A DNA stretch of 47,739 nucleotides from Candidatus Zixiibacteriota bacterium (lineage in GTDB: Bacteria; Zixibacteria; MSB-5A5; GN15; FEB-12): the NCBI GenBank assembly GCA_024277795.1, contig JAJRUL010000033.1:1-47739 (forward strand), given 5' to 3'. Each line of letters begins with the position of its first letter. Position 1 is the first letter of the stretch. The notes beneath the pieces were generated by a model. That model did no database searches and was not told where the DNA came from. It saw only the letters and a program-made list of their open reading frames with translations. Position numbers and translations under genes: made by a program. Below, one piece after another: positions 18,284 through 47,739 of the stretch.

Positions 18284-21200
18284 ATGAAACGGTTGCTCTT
18301 TGTAGTACTCGGTTTGTCTGTCATGTGTTTTATGCAGGCATCAGCTCAAATCTCAAGTGGCGGAACACCCGTCAGTTTTACTCGTTCTGCAAAAACGAGT
18401 ATTCAATCAATTACAACAGCCTCAGTAGATCGTCAGGCTCTTTTAGCTGAAGATGAAATTGAGCAAGCGACAAAAGATGTTCCATACCGTTTCGGTTTTC
18501 CATTTGATGTACACTACAATTTAAGCAACTCAGGTACTTGGGAGACACTCCCTGATGGTACTCGTATGTGGCGCTTACGGATCGAGAGTAAAGGTGCATA
18601 TTCTATAAACTTGATATATGACGACTTCTGGCTTCCTGAGGGTGCCAAGTTCTTTGTCTATAATGCTGACAGGAGTATGGTACTTGGAGCTTTCACAAAC
18701 AAAAACAATAAGGATCACGGTAAATTCTCGACTGGTTTGGTCAAGGGGGATGTTTGTATCCTTGAATATACCGAACCGAAAGGGGTTAAAGCTCCCGGAC
18801 GTTTATCAATCGAACGTATAGTCCACGGTTATCGCAATCTATTTAACTGGCCAACAATGGAGCAGGCATTACGTTATAGCGGAGACTATTCTGAAGCCAC
18901 AGACTTTGGAGGATCCGGTTCTTGTAATAATAATGTAAATTGCCCTGAAGGTGATCCATGGCAGAATCAGACTCATGCTGTCGCGATGATTCTATCCTCG
19001 GGAGGTTTTCGTCTATGTTCAGGCTCGATGATCAATAATGTTCGTCAGGACAGGACACCATATTTCCTGACTGCAAATCACTGTGCAGGTGGCGAAGCGA
19101 CCTGGATTATCATGTTTAACTACGAAAGTCCGACGTGTGCTAACATAGACGGCCCTACATGGATGACAATATCGGGAACAACAAAAAGAGCATCCCGCTC
19201 TTTTTCTGATTTTATGCTTCTTGAGCTTAGTTCACAACCACCAGATTCATATAATGTCTATTATGCGGGTTGGAATGCGATAGATACGCCGTCTGATTCG
19301 GTAATAGGAATTCATCACCCTGCAGGTGATATAAAGAAAATCAGTTTCGACTATGATGCAACTACTTCAACATCATATTTGGGAACTTCTGTCCCAGGCG
19401 ATAACTCCCATTGGCGTATAGGACAATGGGAAGACGGAACGACTGAACCGGGCTCTTCAGGATCGCCGATCTTCAATCGCCAAGGCCAGATTATCGGCCA
19501 GCTTCATGGAGGATACGCTTCATGTAGTAGTATAACCTCAGATTATTATGGTAAAGTATCACGGTCTTGGGCAGATGGCGGTACACCGTCAACACAACTT
19601 AAAGACTGGCTTGATCCTGATAATACTGGTGTACTCCAATTGGGGGGATTAGGTGGCTCTGGAGTAAAAATCACTCATACTCCCCTCTTAGATACTCGTG
19701 ACACAGCCGTTGACTATGAAGTTTTGGCAACAATAGTATCGGATACGACACTTGTAGCAAACGCTCTTCTTCTCACCTATGAAATCAATGCTGTTCAAAC
19801 TTCGGCAACCTTACTCCCAACAGGCAACCCGGATGAGTTCAACGCTTTTATTCCTGCGCAATCACCTGGAACAATTGTTAGCTATTTCCTAACTGCTCTT
19901 GACGATGCAGGCGCCACAGACACAGCCGGTCTATTTACTTTTAGTGTTGCAGATAATTATGAAATGTCCCTTCTTCCACTTTCTCAATCGCAATACGGAC
20001 CCGCGGGCAATGATGCTATATTCTTGCTCACAATCCACAATCTTGGGCTACAGAATGATACCTATGACCTTGTCTCTTCTGGAGGTACCTGGACTGTAAG
20101 TTTCTTTGATGCTACTGGTACCACACCAATTACTTCGGTAGGACCAGTTGTAGCGACTGATTCAGCTCAATTTGTTGTCAAAATAGCTGTACCACCTGGA
20201 ACGCCAATGCTTGCTTCCGATGTTTCAACAATTACCGTCACATCACAAGGTGATCCATTGATTAGTGCAAATGCACAAGTAACTGCTCTCTCAGCAGGTA
20301 CCCCTGGAGGTTTCCCGTGGTATGAATCTTTTCCTACCAACAGTCTTAACAGTAATCGATGGATGACTAATATTGGTGGTGTAGTTTCAGACTCTGGTGT
20401 TGCTCCACCTTCAAGCCCGTACTCGTTGAATCTTGATGGAGGCAACGATACAGTAGTCACACAACTTATCGACGTAAGCGGACAAACTGGTGTTATTGTC
20501 TCTTATTATTATGAATTAGGCGGAGCAAGTGAACCACCTGATGCAGGCGATGATCTGGAATTGTGGTACTTGAATAATGTCGGCTCGTGGGTTTTGTTAC
20601 AGACCCATCTAGGTTCTGGAGCAACCATGAGCAACTTTGAGTTTGTTTCTGTCGGTTTACCTGCTGACGGACTTCACGCTGGCCTTCAACTTCGGTTTAC
20701 TACTGTTGGGTCGTGTATCGATTGCGATAATTGGTTTGTTGATGATATCCGTGTAGATTTTGCACCTGAAATATCAGTAACATCTCCATCCTATTCATTT
20801 ACCTTACCAGTTGAAGATTCTACAACTGATGTAATGACAATCGATAATATCGGGTTAGGTGGACTCTCGTATAGTCTTAGTGTAACATCGGTTACCACAC
20901 CAAAAAGAACATTGGTTGAAGAACTCATCAAGAATGGCCAAGCTGAGCCAGCTCGGAGGAAATATGATGAAGGTATTCTTGACTACAATGATTTCAAAGG
21001 AAGCGACGCACCTTTTGCAGGTTATCCTGTAACGAAAAGTGCAGGTGGACCAGACACCTACGGGTATGTCTGGATAGACTCTGATGAACCAGGTGGACCG
21101 ATATTTGCATGGCAAGATGTCAGTACTACCGGCACTGACATTGTAGCAGGTCTGGCAGATGATAACTACATCGGACCGTATGATTTAGGGTTCCCGTTCT

Positions 21201-22057
21201 CATTCTATGACAGCACATATACACAAGTTTATATTGGATCAAACGGTATCATTGGTTTTGATTCGGTAGGTATGAACTCCAGATTCAAAACTAGCCTCCC
21301 GTCTGCAACGACTCCAAATAACCTTATCGCTTGGCTCTGGGATGACCTGAATCCTACCGATGCAGATAATCCGAATGCTCATGTCTATATTGATACTACA
21401 GGTGGACGATGCGTGATCCAATTTGTCGATTACGCTGAATACGCAGCCGCTGCAGGTGAAGTTGTCAACGCTGAGGTTATTCTCTATCCTGATGGCAGAA
21501 TAACATATCAATATTTGACGATTGCCCCCGGTTTTGATATAGCAAACAACACTATCGGTCTTGAGAATGCCGATGGTACAGACGGTATTGAAGTCTCGTA
21601 CTTGACAACATATCTTCATGACAATCTGGCAATCGACTTCCTGCCTCCGGCACAATGGCTATCACTTGATATAACTTCTGGCTCATTGGTATCAGGTACT
21701 TCTGAAACTATTACTATGGGTGTAAAATCAGTCGGACTTGATACTGGCTATTATCAAGCTGAGATTGTTGTTACATCAAACGACCCAACTAATGGTCAAG
21801 TAATCATTCCAGTCGATTTAACAGTCAATCCTGTAAGCACATATATTTGCGGTGATATCAATGGAAGTGGAGCATTGCCTATAACCGTTGATGATCTCAC
21901 ATATCTGGTTGCATTTCTCTTTCAGGCGGGACCTCCTCCTCCTGAAATCGCTTCTGCTGACTGTAACGGCTCTGGAGGGATTATCAATGTTGACGATCTA
22001 ACATACTTAGTTGCTTACTTATTCCAAAGTGGACCACCGCCTATTTGTGGTACATGA
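18284..22057 (+). CDS. Secreted S1 serine protease, lysyl endopeptidase (Achromobacter protease I)-like, with accessory beta-domains and a C-terminal dockerin-like domain
   Basis: Signal peptide and propeptide; TANHC, DFMLL and TEPGSSGSP triad; IHHP, GQLHGG and SDYYG as in API; C-terminal GDINGSG..TVDDLTYLVAFLF duplicated. Confidence 0.9.
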   Translation: MKRLLFVVLGLSVMCFMQASAQISSGGTPVSFTRSAKTSIQSITTASVDRQALLAEDEIEQATKDVPYRFGFPFDVHYNLSNSGTWETLPDGTRMWRLRIESKGAYSINLIYDDFWLPEGAKFFVYNADRSMVLGAFTNKNNKDHGKFSTGLVKGDVCILEYTEPKGVKAPGRLSIERIVHGYRNLFNWPTMEQALRYSGDYSEATDFGGSGSCNNNVNCPEGDPWQNQTHAVAMILSSGGFRLCSGSMINNVRQDRTPYFLTANHCAGGEATWIIMFNYESPTCANIDGPTWMTISGTTKRASRSFSDFMLLELSSQPPDSYNVYYAGWNAIDTPSDSVIGIHHPAGDIKKISFDYDATTSTSYLGTSVPGDNSHWRIGQWEDGTTEPGSSGSPIFNRQGQIIGQLHGGYASCSSITSDYYGKVSRSWADGGTPSTQLKDWLDPDNTGVLQLGGLGGSGVKITHTPLLDTRDTAVDYEVLATIVSDTTLVANALLLTYEINAVQTSATLLPTGNPDEFNAFIPAQSPGTIVSYFLTALDDAGATDTAGLFTFSVADNYEMSLLPLSQSQYGPAGNDAIFLLTIHNLGLQNDTYDLVSSGGTWTVSFFDATGTTPITSVGPVVATDSAQFVVKIAVPPGTPMLASDVSTITVTSQGDPLISANAQVTALSAGTPGGFPWYESFPTNSLNSNRWMTNIGGVVSDSGVAPPSSPYSLNLDGGNDTVVTQLIDVSGQTGVIVSYYYELGGASEPPDAGDDLELWYLNNVGSWVLLQTHLGSGATMSNFEFVSVGLPADGLHAGLQLRFTTVGSCIDCDNWFVDDIRVDFAPEISVTSPSYSFTLPVEDSTTDVMTIDNIGLGGLSYSLSVTSVTTPKRTLVEELIKNGQAEPARRKYDEGILDYNDFKGSDAPFAGYPVTKSAGGPDTYGYVWIDSDEPGGPIFAWQDVSTTGTDIVAGLADDNYIGPYDLGFPFSFYDSTYTQVYIGSNGIIGFDSVGMNSRFKTSLPSATTPNNLIAWLWDDLNPTDADNPNAHVYIDTTGGRCVIQFVDYAEYAAAAGEVVNAEVILYPDGRITYQYLTIAPGFDIANNTIGLENADGTDGIEVSYLTTYLHDNLAIDFLPPAQWLSLDITSGSLVSGTSETITMGVKSVGLDTGYYQAEIVVTSNDPTNGQVIIPVDLTVNPVSTYICGDINGSGALPITVDDLTYLVAFLFQAGPPPPEIASADCNGSGGIINVDDLTYLVAYLFQSGPPPICGT

Positions 22058-22088
22058 TTTGTTTCGAAAAATATGAGAAAAACAATCG

Positions 22089-24764
22089 ATGATTAAGAAA
22101 AGAATAATGTTGTGTATGTTAATAGCATTGGGAGCGTGTTTTTACACGCTCCCAGTTGCTGTTGAAGCGGGAGAGTACTACATCCAATTTGAGATCGACT
22201 CAAAGGAAGATCTAACAAAACTAACCCGCATACTATCAATCGATAATGTCAATGGATTGGTTGTTCGCGCATATGCGAATGATCGTGAATTGGCTGACTT
22301 TGAACAACTCGGCTACAAATATGATCAACTCCCTCATCCAGGGACACTGATATCACCGACAATGAGTTCAACTCTCAAGGCGGCCTACCTGTTCAATACA
22401 TATCCTACTTACGAAGTATATGATTCGCTGATGTGGAAATTTGCCACCGATTATCCGTCACTTTGCCAAGTGATGTCTGTTGGCACAACTGTTCAGGGAC
22501 GTGATATCCTCTTTGCCAAGATATCCACAAATGTCAACATCGAAGAGAATGAACCTGAAGTACTTTACAGTTCTACAATGCACGGTGATGAAACTGCAGG
22601 GTTTGTTTTGACTCTTCGTTTGATTGACTACTTGTTATCGAATTATGGCACAGATACTCAAGTCACCAATATGCTCGACAATCTTGAAATCTGGATCAAC
22701 CCAAACGCAAACCCAGACGGTACGTACAACAGCGGGAACCATACCGTAAATGGTGCGACACGATACAATGCGAACAGTGTTGATCTAAACAGGAATTTCC
22801 CTGATCCGCAAGATGGCCCGCACCCTGATGGCAACGGGTATCAGAATGAATCAATAGCGATGATGAACTTGGCTGATGCACACCGTTTTGTAATATCAGC
22901 AAACTTTCATGGTGGAGCAGAAGTCGTCAACTACCCATGGGATACATGGTCAAAACGACATGCTGATGACAACTGGTATCAGACTATCTCCCATATGTAC
23001 GCTGATACTGCTCAAGCATACAGCCCTGCATCCTATATGAGTGGTTTTACTGACGGTATTACAAACGGTTGGGATTGGTATGAAGTCAATGGTGGCCGTC
23101 AAGATTACATGAACGCCAAGCATAATTGCCGTGAAATTACAGTTGAATTATCAAATACAAAACTGCTCCCCGAAAGTCAGCTCGACAATCATTGGACATA
23201 TAATCGGGTCGCCCTGCTGAACTATTTTGAGAACGCACTCTATGGTATTAAGGGGCTGGTAACTGATGCCCAAACTGGACTCCCTCTCCCTGCTGTTGTA
23301 ACAATTCTCAATCATGATTCAGACAGCTCGTTCGTTCAAACAGATCCCGATGTTGGTGATTACCATCGCATGATTGCGGCAGGTACCTATGACCTTCAGT
23401 TCACGTCCCCGGGCTATGTTTCTCAAACGATCTTCGGAGTTGTTGCTAACGATGGAGCAGTTACAACTCTGGATGTCCAGCTACAACCTCTCAGTTCGGA
23501 TCCCGTACTATCTTTTGTATCCCACGATCTCACATCAGTACAACCAGGGACATCAGTCTCTATAAATGTTACCATACAAAATGCAGGTGGCGGACCTGCA
23601 ACAAATGTAGCAGGAGTTCTCTCTACAACTGATACGTATGTTACTATCACACAGAATACGAGTACATACCCAACAATTCCTGCTCTTACAGGTCAGGGAA
23701 CGACAATCACGCCGTACCAATTCGATATTGCATCTAACTGTCCGACTGGCCATGTAGTACAATTTGTAGAACATATAACAGCTGACGGCGGGTATACAGA
23801 TTCTATAATGTTTTCGCTTACTGTCGGTTTGGCTATAGAGGACTTTGAATCTAATGGTTTCACAACTTTTCCGTGGCAACAATCTGGTAATGCGAACTGG
23901 GTAACGGTTAGTGACATAGTCTTTGATGGTACCTATAGCGCAAAATCGGGAACTATTACTGATAATCAATCATCAATACTATCAGTAGTTATGGCTGATC
24001 GAATAGCAGGTAATCTTATCTTTAATTACAAGGTCTCATCAGAATCAAGTTATGATTTCCTCAGGTTGTATATTGATGGTTCACAGGTTATAAACTGGTC
24101 AGGGAACATAGACTGGACTGAATACACCTACGCATTGAGTGCAGGTACCCATACAATAGAGTTTAGATACACGAAAGATGGATCAGTCTCAGCAGGATCA
24201 GATGCTGCCTGGATAGACAATATCACATTCCCGCTAGCTAATCAGGACCCCGATGGTGATGGAATCCCATCAGACATAGACAACTGTCCTAATGTATATA
24301 ATCCTAGTCAAACAGATACTGATTCTGACACAGTCGGTGATCTTTGCGATAACTGCCCAACTGTCAGTAATACAAACCAAACTGACAGCGATTCTGACAC
24401 AATAGGCGATCTTTGTGATAACTGCCCAAATGTCAGCAATACAAGCCAAACTGACACTGATTCCGACACAGTTGGTGATCTATGTGATAACTGCCCGAAC
24501 GATCCGAACCCAGGTCAAGAGGACACAGACTTGGATGGGATTGGTGATGTTTGCGATCTCCTATGTGGTGATATCAACCTTGATGGTTTAATAGCAGTTG
24601 ACGATGTAACGTATTTTGTCAATTACTTATTCAAAGGTGGACCAGAACCTCCGAATAAGTCATTAGCAGAAATTGATGGAACTGCACCAATAACTGTTGC
24701 TGATTTAACAGTCTTGGTCTCTTATCTTTTCCAAGGTGGTCCACAACCGACTTGTACGCTGTAA
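22089..24764 (+). CDS. Secreted M14 zinc carboxypeptidase with a regulatory-like domain, TSP3 repeats and a C-terminal dockerin-like domain
   Basis: HGDE (HxxE), NPDG, DLNRNF, NFHGG, YPWD and EITVELS motifs; GIKGLVTD..TG regulatory domain; DNCP repeats; GDINLDG...LFKGGPEP. Confidence 0.93.
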   Translation: MIKKRIMLCMLIALGACFYTLPVAVEAGEYYIQFEIDSKEDLTKLTRILSIDNVNGLVVRAYANDRELADFEQLGYKYDQLPHPGTLISPTMSSTLKAAYLFNTYPTYEVYDSLMWKFATDYPSLCQVMSVGTTVQGRDILFAKISTNVNIEENEPEVLYSSTMHGDETAGFVLTLRLIDYLLSNYGTDTQVTNMLDNLEIWINPNANPDGTYNSGNHTVNGATRYNANSVDLNRNFPDPQDGPHPDGNGYQNESIAMMNLADAHRFVISANFHGGAEVVNYPWDTWSKRHADDNWYQTISHMYADTAQAYSPASYMSGFTDGITNGWDWYEVNGGRQDYMNAKHNCREITVELSNTKLLPESQLDNHWTYNRVALLNYFENALYGIKGLVTDAQTGLPLPAVVTILNHDSDSSFVQTDPDVGDYHRMIAAGTYDLQFTSPGYVSQTIFGVVANDGAVTTLDVQLQPLSSDPVLSFVSHDLTSVQPGTSVSINVTIQNAGGGPATNVAGVLSTTDTYVTITQNTSTYPTIPALTGQGTTITPYQFDIASNCPTGHVVQFVEHITADGGYTDSIMFSLTVGLAIEDFESNGFTTFPWQQSGNANWVTVSDIVFDGTYSAKSGTITDNQSSILSVVMADRIAGNLIFNYKVSSESSYDFLRLYIDGSQVINWSGNIDWTEYTYALSAGTHTIEFRYTKDGSVSAGSDAAWIDNITFPLANQDPDGDGIPSDIDNCPNVYNPSQTDTDSDTVGDLCDNCPTVSNTNQTDSDSDTIGDLCDNCPNVSNTSQTDTDSDTVGDLCDNCPNDPNPGQEDTDLDGIGDVCDLLCGDINLDGLIAVDDVTYFVNYLFKGGPEPPNKSLAEIDGTAPITVADLTVLVSYLFQGGPQPTCTL
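24246..24557 (+). repeat. Thrombospondin type-3 (Ca-binding) coding repeats with a 69-nt period
   Basis: DNCP..xN..QTDxDSDTxGDLC repeated four times. Confidence 0.9.
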
Positions 24765-24950: not shown

Positions 24951-25215
24951 TCTGATACAATCAAAGACAAAGTCTGATACATATATAAGATAACCGATTG
25001 CTCAGTTGATGGACGACATTCGCACTATGCGGATGAAACAGAGGTAACCCGGGTCAGTATGAATTCTTATTCATTTTTTCATTCAATAATCACCAATAGC
25101 ACTATTGAGGTAAGGAGGTAGTACGCGTAGGACAATTAACGGTGCGACATAATCCACTATAGTCGCATAAATCTGCAGGTAACTAACACACAACATTCTC
25201 CTGGGAGGATTGTTA

Positions 25216-28200
25216 ATGTTCAAAAACAAAAGTAAAGTGCGAATCGTTCTTGTACTGGTATTGGTAGGCTTGTGTAGTGCACTAGCCCTCTATGCTGGTA
25301 TTGACCGTGAGCTTGATAAGGAAATGCGAGCCGCACAGCTAGAAGCCAGATCTTCAGCGACAATCAGCAGAAATGCTGAAGTCGATCCTGATGTATTGGC
25401 AAAGCAACAAATGATTCTTGATGAGCAGGTAAAACTCGAAGCAGAGCTTGCCAATGCTCAAAATGTATTAAAAAGCAAAAAAGATGAATGGCGTCCTGGC
25501 AAAGATGCGATGAGGACCAAGGATGAGATTGCATCATTAAAAGCTCGCCTTTCTCTCTCAGGTCACCCATCGATTAAACGCAGTCCTTCATCAATCTTCG
25601 TTAGTGAAGATTTTGAAGGGGCAACGTTCCCACCTCCAATGTGGGATACAATCAATACCGACCCGGGTTATGGCTTTTTTCAAACAAGTTGGACAGGTGG
25701 AGGCACACAAGGTGCTTTTGTAACGTGGCATGCGGCTGGATTCATTCAAGATGAATGGCTACTCACGCCACCACTCAATGTCTCAACGGCAAATCCTGCT
25801 GAACTTAAGATCGAGTTCTGGATGCTCAAAGGATATACATATCCACATGACTTCAAAGTCTATGTTGATGCAGGAGCAGGAATGGTTGAAGTCTGGGATG
25901 CGGCATCAGTTGCATATCCTGATTTCCAATGGTATGCCGTTTCGATTCCTATTGGTGCTTATGCCGGTGGATCTGACATTGTAGTCGGCTTCCAATACTA
26001 CGGAGAAGATGCCGATCTATTTGGTCTTGATGATATCTCTATCAATGATGATGTCGTTGTCACACCAACAGGTCGTTGCTGTTCAGGTGATCCTGCATCT
26101 CCAACCTGTACTGATGGATTGACCCAAGCTGAATGTACAGCCCTGAGTGGTGCATGGCAGGAAGGTGCAGATTGTGCATCTAGCCCGTGTCCTCTCCCGG
26201 GTGGTAATGATGAATGTGTCAATGCTGAATATATCGCCGGTCCATACCCAACTTCAGTGAGTGGCACAACAGTTGGTGCTACAATTGATTGCCCTGGTGA
26301 TCCTGATATTGGTGATTGGGATGCTGTATGGTATGAAATCGAATTACCATATGCAGTGAATAACGTAGTAATTGATTACTGTGGTACAGCAGTATCACCG
26401 CCAACTATTAGTGCAACTCTGTTCACATCTTGCACCTGTGATGCGGCTGCTCGCATCTATTTTGATGACGGTGCTTATGTTGATTGTGGTGACGGTGTCG
26501 GTACACCTGTGATCGGTTGGAATGGTGTCCCTGGACCGGGAACTATTTATTACGCAGTATGGACAGGTGGTGTGAAGGCCGATATGCGTGCTCAGCAAGC
26601 CTTCACGTTCACAGTTGATATCACAGAACCACCTCCTGCACCAGCCAATGATGACTGTGCTACCGCTCAAGAAGTTTCCGATGTTGTTGACCTTGCATTC
26701 TCTACAACAACAGCAACTGCTGACGGTGCTGGTTATACAACTGGACCAAATATCTGGTATGCTTATACTGCAACATGTGACGGCAATGCAACAGTTAGTC
26801 TTTGTGGATCAACATACGACACAAAAATAGCTGCTTACGATGGTGTCACTTGTAGTCCATTGGGAACGATGTTGTCATCTAATGATGACTTCTGTTCTCT
26901 TCAGTCGGAGATCACATTCCCTGTTGTTGCCGGCAATCAATATCTCATTGAGGTTGGTGGATACAGTACGTCTGCAGGCGACGGTCTTCTGAACATAAGT
27001 TGTGCAGCTGGTGGTGGTGGATCTCCGGGAGATAATTGTAGCAACCCGCTTAAGATCGACATCCCGGCCCTGCCATACTCAGATATTGGTCAAACGACAT
27101 GTGGTCGTGGCAATTCATACGAAGACCCGTCCGATGCTATCTGTATGGGATATTACACGAGTGGTGAAGATATCTTCTATGAAGTCACTGTCACCTCAAC
27201 TATTCAAGTCTATATCACACTCGACCCGAAAGGTACTTCATATGCAGGTATGGGATTATTCACATCCTGCCCGCCTTCATTGACGAACTGTGTGGACTTT
27301 GTTACAAGTTCATCGAGTTCACCAAAATCAATGAATTGTGTAAGTCTTGATCCTGGTGTCTACTATTTGATGATTGATACGTGGGCATCACCGAACTGTA
27401 TACCAGACTTTGATCTGACAATCACGGAAGCTACCGGTTGCGGTGGCGGTGGTGGACCTGAAAATGATGATTGTGCCAATGCCACACCTGTTGGTAATGT
27501 AGTTGACTTAGCTTTCAATACTGACGCAGCTTCCTACGACGGTACTGGAACTTGTCTTTCATCACCAAACATTTGGTATGTATACACAGCGACCTGTGAC
27601 GGTGAAGTTGTTGTAAGTCTTTGTGGTTCTGGTTACGACACAAAGTTAGCCGCGTATGATGGCGGAACATGCGGTTCCCCAGAACTTGCTTGTAATGATG
27701 ATTTCTGCAGTCTTCAATCTGAAGTGTCATTTATTGCAGTAGCTGGTAATCAGTATCTGATAGAAGTTGGCGGTTATGCTTCGAGTACAGGCTCAGGTAT
27801 ACTCAATATTACCTGTTCTGATCCGTGTAAGGTCGACTGTCCTCCAGGTGCTATCACAGAAAGTGAAGCATGTGGTGCTGACGAAAACGGTGGTTGTAAC
27901 TCAACAGTACCTGCTTTCCAGACGATTGAATGCGGTCAGCCAATCTGTGGAACAGCATGGGCAGATGCAGGTAGCCGTGACACTGACTGGTTAGAGTTTA
28001 CACTTACTACAAACTCTGAAGTTACATGGACTGCTGTTGCCGAATTCCCATTGGCCACAGGATTCATTGAGACAACATCTCCCGGCTCAATTGACTGTTC
28101 AAACATTACCGGATCTATCAATCCATTTGCTAGCACAAACCCATGTGACACTGCTGTTGTAACAACAGTGCTCCCACCGGGAACGCATTGGATATTTGTC

Positions 28201-29259
28201 GGTGACCAAGGTTTCACTGGCAACCCATGTGGATCTGGCTTTAACACCTGGACAGGTACTCTTACCTGCACTCCTGTAGCACCTACCTATTGTGCTGCTT
28301 CGGGTGGCTGTGATGAGTATATTGAACAGGTTACTGTCGGAACTATCGACAATCTTACCGCTTGTGACAACTATGGTGATTACACCGCATTGTCAACACA
28401 GATGGAAATCGGAGTAGGTTATCCGATTACTATCGCAATTGGTAATGCTTACAACTCTGACGAAGGTGCTGTTTGGGTTGACTGGAATCAGGATCTCGAC
28501 TTTGATGATCCAGGTGAACAGGTAGTTCTTGATGTCAGTAGTGGTGTTGGACCATACACTGGTACTATCACTCCTCCTGCTGATGCTCTTGGCGGATCAA
28601 CCAGAATGAGAGTCAGGCTCGTATGGGGTTCAACACCGACACCATGTGGTACTACATCATACGGTGAAGTTGAGGATTATACGATCAACCTCGGACTGCC
28701 TATGAGCCCTGCAATGGTACTTGATCCTGATATGATGTATGCAATGTATTACTATGCAATCACACCAATGACCGGACATATTTATATTGGCGGTCCTGAT
28801 GCAGGTGATGTCAACTTGATAGATCAGGCAAGTATACTGATCAATGGTACAGTAACTCCTACTGCAGTAGCAGTTGTTACTGATGCAGGTGGTTATACAG
28901 GCGATGTCCTTGACATCTCTTTCTCAATCACTGACTTCCTTGCCGGCTATATGCCAGCTTGGGATAACATGCAAGAACCATTCTCAGTGAGCGGAACGTT
29001 GAATGATGCTACACCATTTGATTTCACCTCTGCTTTCTGGTTGCGTGGACATATCTCAGGTGATATTAATCTCGACAAAGAGATCAACGTAGCTGACCTC
29101 ACGATGCTTGTTGGATATCTGTTTAAGAGTGGAGAAGAACTCCCATACAAACCTGTTGCAGATATGGACAAAACGTGTGAAGTCAATGTCAGTGATCTTA
29201 TGAAACTAGTAGACAGACTGTTTAAGGGTGGATCAGAATTAGAATCTTGCCACTTTTAG
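25216..29259 (+). CDS. Large Cys-rich secreted non-catalytic protein (cleaved-adhesin/MAM-like domain, repeated NDxC beta-sandwich modules, GEVED domain, dockerin-like C-terminus); start likely ATG 25216
   Basis: GGGAGG-N7-ATG; EDFEG..FPP..W...DEWLLTP...LDDI; modules NDDC...NIWY.YTATCDG...SLCGS.YDTK.A.YDG twice; YGEVEDY; GDINLDKEINVADLT. Confidence 0.85.
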   Translation: MFKNKSKVRIVLVLVLVGLCSALALYAGIDRELDKEMRAAQLEARSSATISRNAEVDPDVLAKQQMILDEQVKLEAELANAQNVLKSKKDEWRPGKDAMRTKDEIASLKARLSLSGHPSIKRSPSSIFVSEDFEGATFPPPMWDTINTDPGYGFFQTSWTGGGTQGAFVTWHAAGFIQDEWLLTPPLNVSTANPAELKIEFWMLKGYTYPHDFKVYVDAGAGMVEVWDAASVAYPDFQWYAVSIPIGAYAGGSDIVVGFQYYGEDADLFGLDDISINDDVVVTPTGRCCSGDPASPTCTDGLTQAECTALSGAWQEGADCASSPCPLPGGNDECVNAEYIAGPYPTSVSGTTVGATIDCPGDPDIGDWDAVWYEIELPYAVNNVVIDYCGTAVSPPTISATLFTSCTCDAAARIYFDDGAYVDCGDGVGTPVIGWNGVPGPGTIYYAVWTGGVKADMRAQQAFTFTVDITEPPPAPANDDCATAQEVSDVVDLAFSTTTATADGAGYTTGPNIWYAYTATCDGNATVSLCGSTYDTKIAAYDGVTCSPLGTMLSSNDDFCSLQSEITFPVVAGNQYLIEVGGYSTSAGDGLLNISCAAGGGGSPGDNCSNPLKIDIPALPYSDIGQTTCGRGNSYEDPSDAICMGYYTSGEDIFYEVTVTSTIQVYITLDPKGTSYAGMGLFTSCPPSLTNCVDFVTSSSSSPKSMNCVSLDPGVYYLMIDTWASPNCIPDFDLTITEATGCGGGGGPENDDCANATPVGNVVDLAFNTDAASYDGTGTCLSSPNIWYVYTATCDGEVVVSLCGSGYDTKLAAYDGGTCGSPELACNDDFCSLQSEVSFIAVAGNQYLIEVGGYASSTGSGILNITCSDPCKVDCPPGAITESEACGADENGGCNSTVPAFQTIECGQPICGTAWADAGSRDTDWLEFTLTTNSEVTWTAVAEFPLATGFIETTSPGSIDCSNITGSINPFASTNPCDTAVVTTVLPPGTHWIFVGDQGFTGNPCGSGFNTWTGTLTCTPVAPTYCAASGGCDEYIEQVTVGTIDNLTACDNYGDYTALSTQMEIGVGYPITIAIGNAYNSDEGAVWVDWNQDLDFDDPGEQVVLDVSSGVGPYTGTITPPADALGGSTRMRVRLVWGSTPTPCGTTSYGEVEDYTINLGLPMSPAMVLDPDMMYAMYYYAITPMTGHIYIGGPDAGDVNLIDQASILINGTVTPTAVAVVTDAGGYTGDVLDISFSITDFLAGYMPAWDNMQEPFSVSGTLNDATPFDFTSAFWLRGHISGDINLDKEINVADLTMLVGYLFKSGEELPYKPVADMDKTCEVNVSDLMKLVDRLFKGGSELESCHF

Positions 29260-40300: not shown

Positions 40301-43300
40301 GTTGCAACTAAACTCGCAACTCTGCTGTTGCTTGGTCCTGCGGCATTGGTAATGTCAACGATACGACAATCTGTAACAGAACCATCGGAATCAAAGAAAT
40401 GGACACCATAGAAATTATTGGGGCCTAGTTCTTTGCCATCGATCGTAAAGCCACTAATATGTACAGTTCCAGCTTCAAAAACACCGATACAAGCATCAAT
40501 AGTTCTTACTGATCCAGACCATTGAGTAATATCATACGTTGTACGATCAACTAACGGTACTGCTTCAATAATGGAGTTGTCCATACCAGCACCAATAATG
40601 TCGAGCGATTTATTAATATATGTCTGACCTACATACGTTCCTGCCAGAACATTAATGATATCACCAGACGAGGCGGCATCAACAGCTTCTTGAATTAAAG
40701 AATTGTAGGAATTATCCAAGTTCCATGTCCAACTCGAAGTATGAGGATCACCAACATAGTTGGCATTCCACCATGGAGAATAATCGACTGCACCTAAAAC
40801 AGTCTCACCTGTTCCCTTATCTGTTGTCGTATTTGTTACAACTACAGGAGCATTCTCAGGCATATCGTCACCATAAGGTGATGGTGCCATTGTTATACTC
40901 TTTGGTGCGGAAGACTTTACACCGACAGTAGGACCTGACGGATCGTCCCAGTAACAACCAGTCGCACTGATCGTGTCAGTGAAGGTATTATTAACAGCAG
41001 ATGCTGTATTTCCCGTAAAGTAGCAACCGTGGATTTCTACAGAAACCGTATTGGTTGTGTTACCTGATTGGTCAGCAGTCCAGATGCCGTCATATAATGA
41101 CCCAGTAATTGTACAACCTGTGATGACAGCATTGAGATTACCGTTGTTCCATCCTGTATAGTATGAACCTCCCCATGGATCAAGCGCGGTACCGAATATA
41201 TCGATCCCGTCTCCGCCATTATTCAATATATTACAATCGGTGACTGTCATATTAACTGAACTGCTGTCACGACTCATTTGAACACCAAGGGTCCACGTGT
41301 TGTCATGCAGATTCAGATTTGTAAAACTGAGATTGACAGGAGTCGGTTTGTTGTATACCCAACCCCAATCGCTATAATTGATTCCGCTTTCACAGTTGTA
41401 GGCTTCATCACCATCCATTGAGACATCACCACTCTCGAATAGGAGGATACCTGTTGATGCCCAATCTGAGCCTGTGTAGGCTGTACCCTCAACATAGTTT
41501 CCTGATGTAGAGCCAGAAGCCCCATAACTCAACTGGATACAGTTACCTGCAAGACTGCTTGAAACGACTCCTGAAACAGAGTTGTTATTAACTGTAAATG
41601 TTGCTCCAGGACCCATTATCAGTATACCACCCTTTTGGAAGTTCGGTATAACATTGTCTGAAAAGTCAATTGAGAATGTCTCACCAACACCATGTGTTGC
41701 AACCAAACTTACTATTCTTGAGTAAGAGAGATTCACAGCATCGGTGATGTTACTAATTTGACAGTTGTTTACCGATCCATCAGTATTAAAGTAGTGGATG
41801 CCATAGAAATTATTCGGTCCAGATTCTAAACCGTCTACAGTCAACCCAGAGATATTGACAACTCCCGCATCGGCAACACCGATACATGCATCGATAGTTC
41901 TCGCCGATCCAGACCATTGGGTTACACTATACGAGACTCGATCTACAACAGGAACAGCCTGTACAATTGTTGTTGCGCTTCCCGCACCAATCAGATCAAG
42001 GCTTTTCGTTTCGATCTTAATCTGTTCAACATACGCTCCACTAGCAACATTGATTGTCCCACCATCGGCTATTGCATCAACTGCCGACTGGATATTATCA
42101 AACGCATCGTAACACCAATAGTGGCCATCATTTGCACCGAGTTCAGTATAGTCATCATCAACCCAGATTTCTGCCGGAGCTGATGTTGTGAAGTCACATT
42201 TTGTGAAATCAGCATTACACCACGGTTCGTATACGATACCATCACTGACTTGGTTACCCATTCCATTTGGATTTGTAACTGCATGGAGTGGTCCGCAATA
42301 GGAGCCCCAGTAGTTATTACTCATTGAAATAGGTGTAACAGTATTTGACCAAGCACCTTCAGTATTGTTGGTAATTGTATTGGAGGTGGCAATAATATCA
42401 GCGACACTTCCACTTTCGTATGCAACGACACCGATTTCCCAATCAGTAATTGTACTGTTTGTTATAGTAGCTGTGATATTATCACCTACTGACCAAACTG
42501 CGACACCATAGCTGTTTACATATTGGATACCTGTTAAGGTAAGATTGTCCATCGAAACTGATGTTGCCATACCTTTCAAAGGAGTTGACTGATTGTATGC
42601 TTCTTCAAAAGGCTGAACATTTCTGAATGCGAGATCAGTAATTTGACTCTTGGAATACCCGTAATCTCGAATACTCACACCTTCTTCATATTCTGCACCC
42701 ATTGCCACAACACTCACGCCATCGATTGTACCGTTAGTGCCCTGATAGACAATGCTTGACTGTGAATTAGTCACACTACTGTTGCCGATGAGATCAACTG
42801 AGTTTGCCAGATAGAATAACATACCACTAGCAGTCCAACTTGGACCTGTATATACAATACCTGAGACACTACAATTGTCAACAGTTCCCGTTGCTCCAAA
42901 GCTAATCTGGATACCATTTTGTGCAGTAATTGCTGTCGGGCCTTGACCAGTAACAGTACATCCTGTAACGTTTGCCGTCAGTCCGTCACCGCTTAGGGAT
43001 ATTCCTGTTTTTTGCATATCATCGATAGTGACATTTGTCACATCGATTGTATATGGGCCACTTGTATTGTTATATGCATAAATGCTCACCCCATGCTGGT
43101 TTCCGCTAAACGGCTCGTCACGTACAGTAGTAATATGTACATTACTAATTGTTCCCCCTGTATTCCAATAGCCGACACCAACAAAACGATAGTTTGCATT
43201 TCCGCGTCCCATACCGTCGATAGTTAGATTAGAAATCGACGGGTTGACAGCGTCATGGACATATACTATCGGATAATTATTCGCACTGGTTGTGAAGAAA

Positions 43301-45534
43301 AGAGGAAGAGTTGTTGGAGACTGAATGGTTGTAGCACCGATGCCAGCACCTACAATGCTTATCTCCTTGCTGATATCCAATTGTTCTTCATACGTTCCTG
43401 CATCGACGTTTATTGTTTGTCCATCGACAGCGGCAACAATCGAAGCTTGTATAGTCATTCCGACTGAGACCATTAACTCATTAGTTGTACGGTCAATAAT
43501 AAAGCTATTCAACGGATCAGGACCTCCAAGTACAACTGCTTGTGCAGTTGCAAGGTCAGGATAGTAGGCATGGAGTCCAGCAACTGAATTGCTTCCTGTT
43601 AAATGGCTAAAATCTGAAGTAGGGATTGTCAAATTTGTTATTGGGAACCCGCCTCCTTCTTCAGTATACAAGCCTGTAATTTCGCCGAATGAATTTGTTC
43701 CAGTCAGCACAATATTGTCAGTTCCGCCTGTATAATATGTTCCCTGAGTATAGATCCCGATACCACCCCAAGCATTGCCACTTGTTGTGATATTCTCGAT
43801 TGTGATATTTCGACCGTCGGTTATACCCAATCCAACACCACCATTACCAGTAACGGTTACATTTAGTAATGAACCTAAGTCTGCACCGTTGATATCAATA
43901 CCAGACCGTCCACAGTTTTGTACTGTTACATTGGCAATAGTACAATTGGTCAAATCACCTGCTATTTTTAATCCATAACCGAAAGCAGCAGGGAGAGGAC
44001 CTATCATTGTGAAGTTGTTAAAATTCACATTTGTTGCACTAGAGTTAATACCATAGGCAGAGAAAGATGAAGCATCAATTATGACACCTGCTTCACTCTC
44101 ACCTGTGAGGGTAAGATTCTTGCTAACAGTTAGTGCTTCTGCATAGTTACCATTCAAGACATATACTGTACCATTGTCGAGTACCGCATTAATTCCTTCC
44201 TGAATAGTAGCAAAAGCATCATAACCCCAGGCATAACTTGTTCCATTTGCGGAGTTATATATGTCAACATCTGCCTGACTCGTAAATCCATCATCTACAA
44301 TGATATTGCTCAAGTCACCAGTAGCATAATAAATGCCTCGTGCACACTCTCCTGCTACTTCTGGATAGTGATTGCCAGAACCAGCATATAACCAGCCCCC
44401 ACTCAGATCTTGAGTCATGCTCAACCAATATGACATACGATTGATTTCTGTTTGATAGGTTGCTTGATCCAAGCGACCGAGAGTCATCATTGCATACGCT
44501 GTTGATTGCCAATCTTCATCATCAATATTAACACCATTGCAATAGCCCATTGCTCCCGAAGGATGCAGACTTTGCAGGAGGAGAGTTACTAGGCCAGGTA
44601 TTTCAACAGTATGTGCTCCTGATTCGGAGAATGCATCGATCAAGCCTGCGATACCCAAGTTATACATCCAGTAATCAGCTACGCCATACGCAGGGTCAAA
44701 GCCTGCATCAGCAACAATATCAAAATATCCTGGATTGCTGTTGTATGAATCCTGCCAGAGGACTTCAGCTATATCAATTGAAGCCTGCGCATAATCATAA
44801 GGATCAGTCGGGTAACGTGCTGAGAGCATCGCCGCACTACGGGCAAACGCACCCACATCCCACGCAATAATTCCGTTTGAATACCCTTGACCATTTCTTA
44901 CATCACGAATATACTCAGCCAACAATGTTGCTGATCCTTTACTCGCAATTCTCGCATCAAATTTCGCTTTGGCCGCATCTGCATACATTGTTCCAGTAAC
45001 AACCGAGAGGTCATTATATTGCATGAGGAATATAATATCAGCCGCTGACCAAATTGAAGTGTTGCCAGCCATATAATCGGCGGCATCAGTCAAAGCGGTA
45101 AAGTAGGAAGCGTCTCCTGTTGCCTTATATGCCGACAGAAGCCCCATCGCCGTTGCACCATATATGTTGGTTGGACTATTTGCTGTAGAATGAGCGAACG
45201 GTGCTGGTGGAGATGCAATCACCCAATCCCAACCACCATCATCGGGATCATCAGGAGTTTCATCTACTCCGTTGGTTCCGTTTCCCGCATTATCATCAGT
45301 TATATCTGCCTGCATCCCTTTGAGATATTCAGCAACCTCAACCAGAGCTGAACCAGAAGAAGCAGGGATGCCGTTCGATTTTACTGCACCTTTGCTCCTT
45401 TCAAAGGACCCTGCCACAGGCAGTGTATTGTTTTCTTTACCCCAAGGGTTAACTGGTTCCGCTGAAATGCTTGCTGTGAGAGCAAACAAAACAAGCAGAA
45501 TCACAAACCCAACCTGTCGTTTTGTGAAAAACAT
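37330..45534 (-). CDS. Giant secreted protein: N-terminal (alpha/alpha)-barrel-like domain, multiple parallel beta-helix modules, C-terminal dockerin-like domain
   Basis: Signal peptide; QW-like motifs (YLKGMQ..GGW, WLSMTQDLSGGW); repeated TIQ.AI.A...G..I.V..G.Y.E beta-helix caps and N.W/G...GP ends; GDINHSG...NVSDLTALVAYLF duplicated. Confidence 0.85.
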   Translation of the reverse strand: MFFTKRQVGFVILLVLFALTASISAEPVNPWGKENNTLPVAGSFERSKGAVKSNGIPASSGSALVEVAEYLKGMQADITDDNAGNGTNGVDETPDDPDDGGWDWVIASPPAPFAHSTANSPTNIYGATAMGLLSAYKATGDASYFTALTDAADYMAGNTSIWSAADIIFLMQYNDLSVVTGTMYADAAKAKFDARIASKGSATLLAEYIRDVRNGQGYSNGIIAWDVGAFARSAAMLSARYPTDPYDYAQASIDIAEVLWQDSYNSNPGYFDIVADAGFDPAYGVADYWMYNLGIAGLIDAFSESGAHTVEIPGLVTLLLQSLHPSGAMGYCNGVNIDDEDWQSTAYAMMTLGRLDQATYQTEINRMSYWLSMTQDLSGGWLYAGSGNHYPEVAGECARGIYYATGDLSNIIVDDGFTSQADVDIYNSANGTSYAWGYDAFATIQEGINAVLDNGTVYVLNGNYAEALTVSKNLTLTGESEAGVIIDASSFSAYGINSSATNVNFNNFTMIGPLPAAFGYGLKIAGDLTNCTIANVTVQNCGRSGIDINGADLGSLLNVTVTGNGGVGLGITDGRNITIENITTSGNAWGGIGIYTQGTYYTGGTDNIVLTGTNSFGEITGLYTEEGGGFPITNLTIPTSDFSHLTGSNSVAGLHAYYPDLATAQAVVLGGPDPLNSFIIDRTTNELMVSVGMTIQASIVAAVDGQTINVDAGTYEEQLDISKEISIVGAGIGATTIQSPTTLPLFFTTSANNYPIVYVHDAVNPSISNLTIDGMGRGNANYRFVGVGYWNTGGTISNVHITTVRDEPFSGNQHGVSIYAYNNTSGPYTIDVTNVTIDDMQKTGISLSGDGLTANVTGCTVTGQGPTAITAQNGIQISFGATGTVDNCSVSGIVYTGPSWTASGMLFYLANSVDLIGNSSVTNSQSSIVYQGTNGTIDGVSVVAMGAEYEEGVSIRDYGYSKSQITDLAFRNVQPFEEAYNQSTPLKGMATSVSMDNLTLTGIQYVNSYGVAVWSVGDNITATITNSTITDWEIGVVAYESGSVADIIATSNTITNNTEGAWSNTVTPISMSNNYWGSYCGPLHAVTNPNGMGNQVSDGIVYEPWCNADFTKCDFTTSAPAEIWVDDDYTELGANDGHYWCYDAFDNIQSAVDAIADGGTINVASGAYVEQIKIETKSLDLIGAGSATTIVQAVPVVDRVSYSVTQWSGSARTIDACIGVADAGVVNISGLTVDGLESGPNNFYGIHYFNTDGSVNNCQISNITDAVNLSYSRIVSLVATHGVGETFSIDFSDNVIPNFQKGGILIMGPGATFTVNNNSVSGVVSSSLAGNCIQLSYGASGSTSGNYVEGTAYTGSDWASTGILLFESGDVSMDGDEAYNCESGINYSDWGWVYNKPTPVNLSFTNLNLHDNTWTLGVQMSRDSSSVNMTVTDCNILNNGGDGIDIFGTALDPWGGSYYTGWNNGNLNAVITGCTITGSLYDGIWTADQSGNTTNTVSVEIHGCYFTGNTASAVNNTFTDTISATGCYWDDPSGPTVGVKSSAPKSITMAPSPYGDDMPENAPVVVTNTTTDKGTGETVLGAVDYSPWWNANYVGDPHTSSWTWNLDNSYNSLIQEAVDAASSGDIINVLAGTYVGQTYINKSLDIIGAGMDNSIIEAVPLVDRTTYDITQWSGSVRTIDACIGVFEAGTVHISGFTIDGKELGPNNFYGVHFFDSDGSVTDCRIVDITNAAGPSNSRVASLVATHSASGSFNVDFSNNLIPSFQKGGILLMGPSGTCTVDNNNVDGGGITTLAQNGIQVSYGTSGTLTGNDVSGVAYPGTDWSGTGILFFESGDITVTGGTVVGCEMGINYSQWNWVYTPTVTPTIIVDGVTLDNNQWAIETHLGNDGVSLNVEVLNCTITNSTSAGVELWGSDADPWGGAYYAGWTNGTLNANIHDNVITDGSIGIEQWLDLTTGNVTNSEAHKNSFAGSTSYGVYNNFSTLFNAEENWWGDISGPFLDLSKSSGTTTKKLYLPFMANDDFTPESFEYTRPNLADKGFGVSVSANVDYEPWCNEDFSVCGFGTPNVVWIDDDYTPADANDGHIWGYDAFTSIQDGIDVINTGGTIYIFEGIYTEQVHINKDNLTFIGAGVDVSVITSPATLTHFFTATSNNDYPVVFVDSISNVTMSGLTIDGDHQGDSNYRFAGLGIWNSSGSFTDLKIINIMNSTFSGAQHGVGVLANNNTGGPYTITLNGLLVEQFQKTAVALIGDGLVVDVSNVTTIGAGATSVTAQNGIQISGGAGGTVDNCSISKVTYTGGTWTATGFLVFGPGTVNANAVTIDECQTSVYYIDGGGTFDNSTVTNPTGDGLWVYSTGTAKASNTRLKLPEAFETEIDYRADKAPISITISNSTFTGVDLADSWGVSAYAVGPIDFNVTNCEVSHWAYGIVPESGGSIVTSVISGNEVSFTLQPGIDIRSENAQVLNNILYDCNYYGPDGWGGFNAAAIQIAPGSDNALVDGNTVSDCVNGIQTWANNTTISNNELFDMGDSYQGKRYIDCPGPNCRTYYNSAILVGSHFGGTAVDYDPVGTVIEQNSIHDNHWGLFYDSNLTVGVDARNNFWGVWDGPTDTIGTAEATVTVCHDVADVTNEIAETYPASGLGDGVSENVIYCPWGLYAWNCCVIRGDINHSGYQFGLAVNVSDLTALVAYLFQGAPPPYCLEEANVDNIGAVNVADLTYLVDYLFKGGPAPSPCN

Positions 45535-47146: not shown

Positions 47147-47150
47147 AGAT

Positions 47151-47739
47151 TCATAAAAACAAATAACTTACCAACGCCGTTATATCGCTAACATTAACCG
47201 TTCCGTTACCATCAAGATCGGCTGCCTCAATAAGCTGAGGTACTGGACCACCTCCAAATAGGAAATCTACTAAGTAGGTCAAATCAGAGATATTAACAGT
47301 TCCATCCATATTGACATCCCCAGACCTATGCCCGACCATCACAACCTCTCCAGATGCAGAGAAACTTGCCGCATCGGTAAAGAGTCCCGTCAAACTATAA
47401 GTTTGTGTGGTGGTGTCGTACAACTGTCCATAGTCTTGAATAAACTGGGTCAGAAGAATATCAGCTTTCATCACTTCACCCGTAAACCCGGAATAGTTCG
47501 GAAGAATCGACCATGAAACGGGAACCAATGTTCCGTTAATAAGCAAAGTCGATACATCAACATCCTGCACAGTCCTTCCCTCAGTTATGTTACCGAAGTA
47601 GATACTGAATAGCAGGCTATCTATGTTGTTAGCCTGTAAGGTATAAATTGTATCTGGTGAAATTGTAGCGTCATACCCGGTAAAAGGAGTGTACTTAAAC
47701 ACTCTATCTGTGACACTTGATAAATCATGACCACCTATC
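47151..47739 (-). CDS. C-terminal part of a sixth dockerin-tagged protein (5' end beyond the window), possibly preceded by Kelch repeats
   Basis: The frame stays open to the window edge (IGGHDLSSVTDRVFKYTP, Kelch-like); GDVNMDGTVNISDLTYLVDFLFGGGP...ADLDGNGTVNVSDITALVSYLF. Confidence 0.85.
   Translation of the reverse strand, partial: IGGHDLSSVTDRVFKYTPFTGYDATISPDTIYTLQANNIDSLLFSIYFGNITEGRTVQDVDVSTLLINGTLVPVSWSILPNYSGFTGEVMKADILLTQFIQDYGQLYDTTTQTYSLTGLFTDAASFSASGEVVMVGHRSGDVNMDGTVNISDLTYLVDFLFGGGPVPQLIEAADLDGNGTVNVSDITALVSYLFL

Follow-up and report, generated by a model that had tools for sequence, protein, structure and literature searches.

A predicted divergent dockerin on exported peptidases of a Candidatus Zixiibacteriota bacterium and its probable display on T9SS-anchored cohesins

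Six genes in a 47,739-nucleotide stretch of DNA from a Candidatus Zixiibacteriota bacterium (contig JAJRUL010000033.1; the whole stretch is called the window here) end in the same duplicated motif, which raises the question of what such a shared tail does. Two alternatives had been offered by an earlier note on this DNA, namely a peptidase-centred cohesin-dockerin complex, or a C-terminal tag that replaces the C-terminal domain (CTD) of T9SS cargo. The motif was recovered at the end of all six genes, within a few bases of the positions given in that note, and its duplication is seen in 6/6 window tails.

On the plus strand, an S1 (trypsin-like) peptidase of 1257 aa (18284..22057, tag 21845-22054; Trypsin_2 34 bits over cut-off) is followed by an M14 carboxypeptidase of 891 aa (22089..24764, tag 24561-24761; Peptidase_M14 E 7.7e-59), which also carries CarboxypepD_reg and TSP_3 repeats, and by an exported protein of 1349 aa (25210..29259, tag 29053-29256) with GEVED (E 7e-23) and a galactose-binding-like domain (GBD_T9SS_assoc E 4e-9). 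The minus strand encodes an S8 subtilase (30576..35237, tag 30579-30788; Peptidase_S8 E 4e-26), whose 1553-aa ORF likely starts at an internal Met 24 codons in to give a product of ~1529 aa, a right-handed beta-helix (adhesin-like) protein of 2734 aa (37330..45534, tag 37333-37548; Beta_helix E 4e-46, with matches in 9 stretches), and the 3' end of an edge gene that is cut by the contig edge (47151..47738) and ends in a near-canonical dockerin (47154-47327). A stalk of ~700 aa is common to the S1 and S8 proteins, with 58% identity. Against an HMM of the tails, those of the S1, M14 and 2734-aa proteins score 111, 115 and 107 bits, respectively. The signal peptides previously read on the five complete genes, that of the S1 protein included, are also seen with a hydrophobicity heuristic (not SignalP). 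Tags are clustered here, as six occur in 29.5 kb against 0.44 expected from 44 per 2.96 Mb (Poisson P ~1e-5).

In type I dockerins (PF00404), a segment of ~22 residues, with a Ca-binding-type loop ahead of a helix, occurs twice in tandem. The tag is a duplicated loop-helix module of ~65 residues, in which each of the two Ca-loop and helix repeats continues from its helix into a conserved LFxGGPxP(C) extension. With Pfam Dockerin_1, a clear pass is obtained for one window tail, that of the edge gene (40.6 bits, over cut-off, with 12 residues in each of its two loops), the 1349-aa protein is borderline (19.2 bits, below cut-off, and 25.1 bits in a six-frame search), and 4/6 window tails give no match at E 0.01; genome-wide, the cut-off is passed by 10 of 44 tagged ORFs. 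When a profile of 42 tails was compared with solved structures, the best match was the dockerin 4fl4_A (E 2.2e-9), and 30 of the 36 matches up to E 1 were dockerin modules or dockerin-bearing proteins, the remaining six being EF-hand proteins at E 0.08 or weaker. An AF2 model of the S8 tail (pLDDT 94.3, pTM 0.81) retrieved dockerins as all of its top ~30 Foldseek matches (TM 0.62-0.76; TM 0.71-0.76 and probability 1.00 for the ten best), although a domain this short yields E-values no better than 7e-3. Profile and model together mark the tail of these genes as a divergent, type-I-like dockerin.

Its divergence lies in both loop and helix. The 12-residue, EF-hand-like D/N-x-D/N...D spacing is kept in 42/82 repeat loops, and the other 40 have 13-17 residues, including 25/82 loops of 16 residues, most with a GPGG-type insert, so that Ca binding may differ. 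The KR helix residues, said earlier to be lacking, are indeed missing in alignment to C. thermocellum dockerins. The extension noted earlier is likewise present, LFxGGPxP occurring in two copies in 31/42 tails and in one copy in 9/42, and the description 'Cys-bracketed' suits the exactly two Cys of 31/42 tails; the C-termini read ...GPPPICGT or similar. Loops that are often non-canonical, together with a helix face that is hydrophobic (VxYLF) where clostridial type I dockerins have Ser-Thr and Lys-Arg pairs, would suit a tag that binds a partner other than cohesin, for instance stabilising Ca2+, the S-layer or a glycan of the cell surface, or a second dockerin. The genome's cohesin-like modules would in that event have an unrelated role. 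This explanation has a very slim chance in our judgement, since both the dockerin and the cohesin folds are well supported.

Could the tail be a sorting signal of a known kind? None of the six window proteins matches the T9SS CTD profiles TIGR04183 / PF18962, and the tail is helical. In short C-terminal sorting signals, a short motif precedes a transmembrane helix with a basic tail behind it; no hydrophobic helix stands at the tail ends, which speaks against PEP-CTERM, IPTL-CTERM and LPXTG, and in an NCBIfam search no sorting-signal family matched any window tail.

Beyond the window, the HMM of the six tails, a search proposed from the outset, identified 38 more ORFs (E 1e-26 to 5e-7) among 19,635 six-frame ORFs, giving 44 tagged ORFs in the genome, and N-termini are signal-peptide-like in 35 of the 36 with a complete 5' end. 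Peptidases make up 13/44, comprising five S8, two M14 and one each of S1, M1, M6, M23, M28 and M64. No more than 9 residues separate the tag from the ORF end in 43/44, and the DLTYLVxYLFxGGPxP core of the tag is conserved far above what is usual in dockerins. Both features would fit a sorting or export signal read by machinery other than cohesin, with the dockerin ancestry incidental, as would the many-fold excess of tags over cohesins. We regard this as decidedly improbable, considering that no candidate machinery was found in the searches made, that the tag has neither a transmembrane or basic tail nor a sorting-signal family match, and that its position varies: it is N-terminal in one ORF (C80), and 150/150 top representatives carry 2-12 tandem tag modules, 70 of them with the array starting in the first 60 residues. 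Such variation argues for a binding module.

If the tag is a binding module, a receptor should be encoded, and the absence of any cohesin-like protein had been named as what would sink the complex; the genome does encode cohesin modules. The cohesin fold (PF00963) is a nine-strand beta-sandwich. The C127 protein combines a Cohesin match (30.7 bits, cut-off 24.1) with a Por_Secre_tail; its cohesin profile found only cohesins in the PDB (13/13 matches, best E 5e-6), and the one module modelled, that of C127, adopts the cohesin fold (pLDDT 90.3; Foldseek to type I cohesins E 1e-10), with matches including 2xdh, a non-cellulosomal cohesin of Archaeoglobus fulgidus. C122 has two cohesins (50.4 bits, over cut-off 24.1), the highest number of Pfam-detected modules per protein, and a CTD, and C229 and C196 have one cohesin and a CTD each, so at least four cohesin-bearing proteins end in T9SS sorting domains. 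C29 and C119_55317 unite a cohesin-like module with the tag, and the existence of such possible adaptors speaks against a non-cohesin partner. Altogether, cohesin modules are a mere handful next to the 44 tags here and the 50 or more tag matches in most relatives.

The core of the T9SS is formed by SprA, PorU, PorV and the PorKLMN / GldKLMN motor. The T9SS search called for in the earlier note returned SprA (531 bits) and PorU (689 bits), both over cut-off, and PorV-like matches of 92 bits or less, below cut-off; a GldM search without positive control, in a genome that is 90.7% complete, gave no match. Ordinary CTD cargo is represented by ~30 proteins, with 30 matches over cut-off, all in ORFs other than the tagged six. 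A cellulosome is a different matter, as it comprises dockerin-bearing glycoside hydrolases and a multi-cohesin, CBM-bearing scaffoldin. The reported lack of glycoside hydrolases extends from the window genes to 44/44 tagged ORFs, none of which has a GH catalytic family; no protein has more than two Pfam-detected cohesins, and with no CBM seen in the proteins scanned either, a cellulosome is rejected.

In a comparison set of 121 related genomes, probably Zixibacteria, the tag occurs in 118, and 117 of these have cohesin as well, which counts against a non-cohesin partner. All three genomes lacking the tag (G066, G115 and G090) are among the four without cohesin, and this joint absence counts against both a non-cohesin partner and a signal read by other machinery; related genomes are not independent samples, however, and as the three belong to only two families, a single event or two may lie behind it. 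The fourth, G105, has 31 tag matches and 0 matches to this cohesin profile, a point in favour of a non-cohesin partner.

Homologous peptidases of tag-poor relatives illustrate what else may stand at the tag position. Among the five best M14 matches (41-57% identity), three have a TIGR04183 CTD, one has an IPTL-CTERM (G079) and one a dockerin; for M1, a T9SS CTD takes the tag position in 7/7. Judged by these alignments, the tag and the T9SS CTD occupy an equivalent slot on homologous cargo, which could also be expected of a sorting signal. It is in this respect that the notion of a CTD-replacing tag stands. As a self-sufficient sorting signal the tag finds no support, considering that the genome retains its T9SS and its CTD cargo, that the tag is also found N-terminally and, elsewhere, in arrays of up to 12, and that the features of known sorting signals are missing from it. 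The complex in turn is supported by the dockerin fold and profile, the presence of cohesins and the joint absence in three genomes, with binding being predicted, so each of the two original alternatives is borne out in part and the evidence favours a hybrid.

The hybrid that we consider probable, with moderate confidence, is a non-cellulosomal, peptidase-centred cohesin-dockerin display on T9SS-anchored cohesins in a diderm. The tag would be a non-covalent address label on Sec-exported peptidases and adhesin-like proteins, and would dock on cohesins borne by a small set of proteins that are T9SS cargo in their own right, among them the conserved 285-aa protein made of signal peptide, cohesin and CTD, another small protein of this kind and some larger proteins with several domains. 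PorU would process the CTD and leave the cohesin proteins on the cell surface, with the small cohesin and dockerin proteins as possible adaptors, and the outcome would be a protein-degrading, adhesive assembly at the cell surface rather than a cellulosome. We infer the cohesin-dockerin binding, its Ca dependence, the surface location and, most of all, the crossing of the outer membrane by tagged cargo.

For that crossing, small cohesin-CTD proteins might bind tags already in the periplasm and carry the cargo through the T9SS, a possible but unlikely course, and it is similarly doubtful that the cargo ends anchored together with its CTD-bearing carrier. Hitchhiking of this kind would account for the cis CTD in the same slot on relatives' cargo and for the C127-type protein, which is full length throughout its family and order and consists solely of signal peptide, cohesin, linker and CTD. 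Since Sec-type N-termini are present on both partners, each would traverse the periplasm. CTD candidates in a first look number 73-225 in tag-poor or tagless families versus 30-73 in the tag-rich family f1, in line with such a carrier, but such candidate counts do not give copy numbers, and a single clade may comprise the tag-poor families. No dedicated alternative outer-membrane route for tagged cargo was identified. Secretins, being present in 121/121 genomes with or without tags, do not discriminate tagged from tagless genomes, but secretin-type systems could export the cargo. Moreover, the cargo includes the 2734-aa beta-helix protein, and we know of no precedent for piggyback export through the T9SS.

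The probable display system has counterparts. Non-cellulosomal cohesin-dockerin modules were reportedly described by Peer et al. in 2009; cohesin and dockerin occur without cellulose degradation in both cases, but here they are phylum-wide, with 44 tags in the genome and at least 50 scored matches in the majority of relatives, and coupled to the T9SS. Clostridial type I pairs (C. thermocellum 1ohz, 4fl4) have the same duplicated loop-helix dockerin as a C-terminal tag on secreted enzymes and the same beta-sandwich cohesin, and OlpA and OlpC (3ul4, 4dh2) are single-cohesin anchors like the small cohesin proteins here. They differ in anchoring (SLH or sortase, as against a T9SS CTD in a diderm), in cargo (here peptidases and adhesins, with no GH among the tagged ORFs), in the helix face (KR, as against VxYLF and the LFxGGPxP(C) extension) and in the 16-residue loops found here. 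T9SS type A CTDs (TIGR04183 / PF18962) share position and protein class, namely exported peptidases and adhesins, but have an unrelated fold (beta-sandwich versus helical Ca-loop tag) and no sequence match, and they act directly on the translocon whereas the tag would act in trans via a cohesin-CTD partner. In Ca. Stygibacter (Cloacimonadota), a cellulosome-like complex has been inferred in silico from MAGs only, with signal-peptide enzymes bearing C-terminal dockerins, including S8 and C25 peptidases beside GH18 and GH57, and one 3,755-aa scaffoldin of tandem cohesins and CBMs (Williams et al. 2021, PMC8542988). Both are FCB-group diderms with a T9SS CTD on a cohesin-bearing protein and a MAG-only inference, but several small cohesin-CTD proteins, no GH, 44 tags per genome, a dockerin subtype mostly missed by Pfam and the tag-for-CTD exchange on homologous cargo set the present case apart.

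Standard annotation mostly misses the tag on these 44 exported proteins, many exported peptidases included. In this uncultured lineage, common in anoxic sediments, extracellular protein degradation may be better read as an organised, cell-attached assembly than as free enzymes. Homologous peptidases that bear, depending on the relative, either a cis T9SS signal or a dockerin provide a natural experiment, by which cohesin-dockerin function across a diderm envelope and T9SS cargo in trans become testable; the short, highly conserved dockerin might also be paired with the small cohesin as a compact tool for surface display in T9SS hosts. To our knowledge, the T9SS is so far known for cis-tagged substrates only. 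If hitchhiking were true, dozens of cis CTDs would have been replaced by one CTD-bearing carrier family, adding a modular, non-covalent cargo-selection layer to the T9SS.

The window is the entire 47.7-kb contig C245 of a 2.96-Mb metagenome-assembled genome (MAG; 90.7% complete), and the six open reading frames (ORFs) singled out in the earlier note all exist as described there. According to Pfam, they encode an S1 peptidase (18284-22057, + strand), an M14 carboxypeptidase (22089-24764, +), a GEVED/galactose-binding-like protein (25210-29259, +), an S8 subtilase (30576-35237, -) and a 2734-aa beta-helix protein (37330-45534, -); the sixth gene runs off the end of the contig and is present only as a fragment (47151-47738, -). 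All six share an alignable C-terminal module of ~65 residues, hereafter the tag, whose previously reported coordinates were reproduced to within a few bases. It is composed of two repeats (D/N-rich loop, helix 'DLTYLVxYLF' and 'xGGPxP' extension, with Cys often next).

Several features of these genes and their surroundings deserve mention in their own right. The S1 and S8 proteases have in common a 698-residue C-terminal stalk plus tag (58% identity) and another 420 residues alike at 40%, and their catalytic heads are unrelated, which looks, at the sequence level, like an exchange of heads on a shared display stalk. In the S8 ORF, the first ATG heads a non-hydrophobic 24-residue stretch, and because a signal-peptide-like segment begins at an internal Met (MKLAKILL...), the true length of the protein is probably ~1529 aa. 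A ScdA/hemerythrin gene for iron-sulfur repair (35731-36450, +) and a rubrerythrin gene (36624-37238, -) separate the tagged S8 gene from the tagged beta-helix gene; both are stress genes typical of anaerobes and stand outside the tag system. In addition, a tRNA gene (46406-46478, -; 69.3 bits) adjoins a 104-aa ORF (46832-47146, -) in which the phage Rha and ORF6N regulator domains are represented by their C-terminal parts alone, and the two may be what is left of an integrated element lying between a pair of tagged genes.

Among the six window tails, the edge gene alone passes the Pfam Dockerin_1 cut-off (40.6 bits), the GEVED protein is borderline, and the other four have no match at E 0.01. 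A profile of 42 tails from the genome matches solved dockerins (best 4fl4_A, E 2.2e-9), with 30 of its 36 listed hits being dockerin modules or dockerin-bearing proteins and the weakest six EF-hand proteins. Moreover, the AF2 model of the S8 tail (pLDDT 94.3) retrieves dockerins as all of its top ~30 Foldseek hits, with TM values of 0.71-0.76 for the ten best. In an alignment with C. thermocellum dockerins the claimed lack of Lys-Arg helix residues held up, with hydrophobic residues or Asn there instead; the 12-residue loop spacing is kept in 42/82 repeat loops, and 25/82 are 16-residue loops, most with a GPGG-type insert. All this marks the tail as a divergent dockerin rather than a new fold.

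An HMM of the six window tails identified 44 tag-bearing ORFs in the genome, in 43 of which (one cut by a contig end) the tag lies no more than 9 residues from the ORF end. The sole tagged ORF with an N-terminal dockerin, C80:1200-2030 (-), carries it directly after the signal peptide, and a DUF3108-like domain follows. Eight tagged ORFs are 5'-truncated; of the other 36, judged by a simple heuristic rather than SignalP, 35 have a basic-then-hydrophobic N-terminus. Peptidases account for 13 of the 44 (five S8, two M14, and one each of S1, M1, M6, M23, M28 and M64), and the remainder carry adhesin-type repeats (TSP_3, HYR, FG-GAP, PKD, He_PIG, BACON_2, beta-helix, beta-propeller), a cupredoxin, DUFs or nothing known. 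The absence of glycoside hydrolases (GHs), first remarked in the window, extends to the genome-wide set, with a GH catalytic family in none of the 44. The six tagged genes of the window fall within 29.5 kb, ~14 times the genome density.

Whether such a tail is a binding module or a terminal signal can be considered from its wider use. Against 1.84 billion representative proteins, the tail profile gave 48,079 matches at E 1e-3 and 15,500 at E 1e-10. Every one of the top 150, a sample biased toward multi-copy proteins since scores add, has 2-12 tandem modules; the first module falls within the opening 60 residues in 70 of them, and a C-terminal module is present in 87. Such position independence and tandem use sit more easily with a binding module than with an export signal at the protein end. 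Three representative proteins (P0007, P0008 and P0013) consist almost wholly of 6-12 tandem dockerins of the tag subtype, with nine modules in the 720 aa of P0007, and proteins of this kind could act as cross-linkers for cohesin-bearing proteins.

Cohesins, on whose presence the complex proposed in the earlier note depended, are indeed encoded in the genome. A 299-aa ORF on contig C127 combines a Pfam Cohesin match with a C-terminal T9SS sorting domain (CTD), an 869-aa ORF on C122 has two Pfam Cohesin modules and a CTD, and a CTD-bearing ORF on C229 gave a weak Pfam Cohesin match in a six-frame search. A profile built from the C127 module together with 24 orthologues has 13 PDB matches, all of them cohesins (best E 5e-6), and the AF2 model of the module (pLDDT 90.3) matches type I cohesins (Foldseek E 1e-10). 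As a first cohesin HMM had the C29 protein in its seed and was circular for it, the non-circular C127-type profile was used instead. This profile added a 274-aa CTD-bearing ORF on C196, and matched C229 and, weakly, C205 (both CTD-bearing), as well as C223, truncated by the contig end. It also matched C29 and C119_55317, which are tagged themselves and look, from their domain content, like cohesin-plus-dockerin adaptors. A complex prediction of the C127-type cohesin with the tag scored 0.02 relative to a mark of 0.32, was run without controls and carries no weight either way. The C127 cohesin gene (C127:30084-32904 (-) region) lies directly downstream of genes for HtrA-like (Trypsin_2 plus PDZ) and PDZ proteins, in a neighbourhood of HtrA-like, PDZ, Ser/Thr kinase and TPR genes with no T9SS gene; the HtrA-like and PDZ neighbours would suggest periplasmic quality control.

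Components of the T9SS are present in the genome, including SprA (531 bits), PorU (689 bits) and PorV-like proteins under the cut-off; GldM had no match here or in any control genome and is hence uninformative. None of the 30 Por_Secre_tail matches over cut-off falls in a tagged ORF, and therefore the tag and the CTD mark disjoint cargo sets in one cell. In the arrangement that we propose, peptidases and adhesins would be displayed non-covalently on T9SS-anchored cohesins.

The relationship between the two address labels becomes apparent on homologous cargo. When the catalytic part of the window M14 peptidase was searched against five tag-poor genomes, the best match of each (41-57% identity) had one of three endings. 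Three matches carry TIGR04183, a T9SS type A sorting domain (44.7-47.6 bits), and another carries a dockerin (tag HMM E 1.4e-14). The last, an 886-aa ORF on G079:C86, ends in IPTL-CTERM (TIGR04174, 21.9 bits against a cut-off of 20.5), which adds a third address label to this enzyme family in a single phylum. All seven homologues of the tagged M1 aminopeptidase on C116 in the same five genomes (38-41% identity) end in TIGR04183. The S1 head of P0001, the window S1 gene, had no homologue at E 1e-20 in these five genomes, so the comparison rests on just two cargo families. From these endings, the dockerin occupies the slot of established surface-sorting signals, which supports a surface-addressing role for it. 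The suggestion that the tag replaces the CTD thus gains substance for its place on homologous enzymes, though the tag would act via a cohesin-CTD intermediary rather than as an autonomous signal.

The system is widespread in the phylum. A motif search with an alignment of eight closer tails found the tag in MAGs whose record labels are inconsistent: Candidatus Zixiibacteriota (5 isolates), 'uncultured Ignavibacteriales' (7), candidate division GN15 (1), Ca. Deferrimicrobium sp. (1) and 'bacterium' (3). Among 121 genomes sampled from the phylum, the tag is present at E 1e-8 in 118, mostly with at least 50 scored matches per genome and up to 289 first-look candidates, and the C127-type cohesin at E 1e-5 in 117, with 1-12 matches each; the full-length signal peptide-cohesin-CTD protein is kept through family and order at 35-52% identity. 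The cohesin never occurs without the tag: four genomes lack the cohesin, and they include all three that have no tag, namely G066 and G115 (family f13) and G090 (f17). The remaining one, G105, of the same family as the window's genome, has 31 tag matches but no match to the C127-type profile at E 1e-5, and may carry another cohesin subtype, e.g. the C122 type, missed by that profile. CTDs are present in 121/121 genomes. First-look CTD counts, which are candidates rather than copy numbers and come from non-independent kin, are 73-225 in the tag-poor or tagless families f9, f13, f14 and f17 versus 30-73 in f1, making a trade-off of tag versus CTD across families a lead, not a test.

The system uses the same modules as clostridial type I cohesin-dockerin pairs. 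A cellulosome reading was rejected: with no GH and no CBM scaffoldin, the system fails the cellulosome definition. The nearest described case is that of Ca. Stygibacter (Cloacimonadota), for which a 'cellulosome-like' complex was inferred in silico; it comprises GH18, GH57, S8 and C25 enzymes with dockerin tags, and its 3,755-aa scaffoldin bears cohesins and a CTD (PMC8542988). This was the only paper retrieved in a literature search for dockerin, peptidase, T9SS and metagenome-assembled jointly. Searches of papers, excluding supplements, which may contain relevant tables, found none linking dockerins with Zixibacteria/Zixiibacteriota, nothing related for Zixibacteria and cellulosome, and, in the accessible parts of the records, apparently nothing related for dockerin and Latescibacteria. 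New here are the phylum-wide scale of the tag system, the restriction of its enzymes to peptidases, the small conserved cohesin-CTD anchor, a dockerin subtype mostly missed by Pfam, the exchange of tag for CTD on homologous cargo, and the joint absence of tag and cohesin.

One gap in the display model is how tagged cargo, which has no CTD, crosses the outer membrane. The genome has two secretins, one beside PilO and the other beside weak T2SSC and PilM/N matches. Secretins occur in 121/121 related genomes, tagged or tagless, so their presence speaks neither for nor against a T2SS-like route, and they were set aside as a discriminating export route. Another explanation is co-export, in which cargo bound to a cohesin-CTD carrier would cross the outer membrane with it. 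Since both partners traverse the periplasm, and the homologous enzymes of relatives are exported by means of cis CTDs, this is a serious and novel possibility, if a rather improbable one. As to the cell surface itself, the interpretation in the earlier note is partly supported, its two alternatives, a peptidase-centred complex and CTD replacement, holding in combination: the best-supported reading of the sequence evidence is that peptidases and adhesins would be held there by non-covalent display on T9SS-anchored cohesins.
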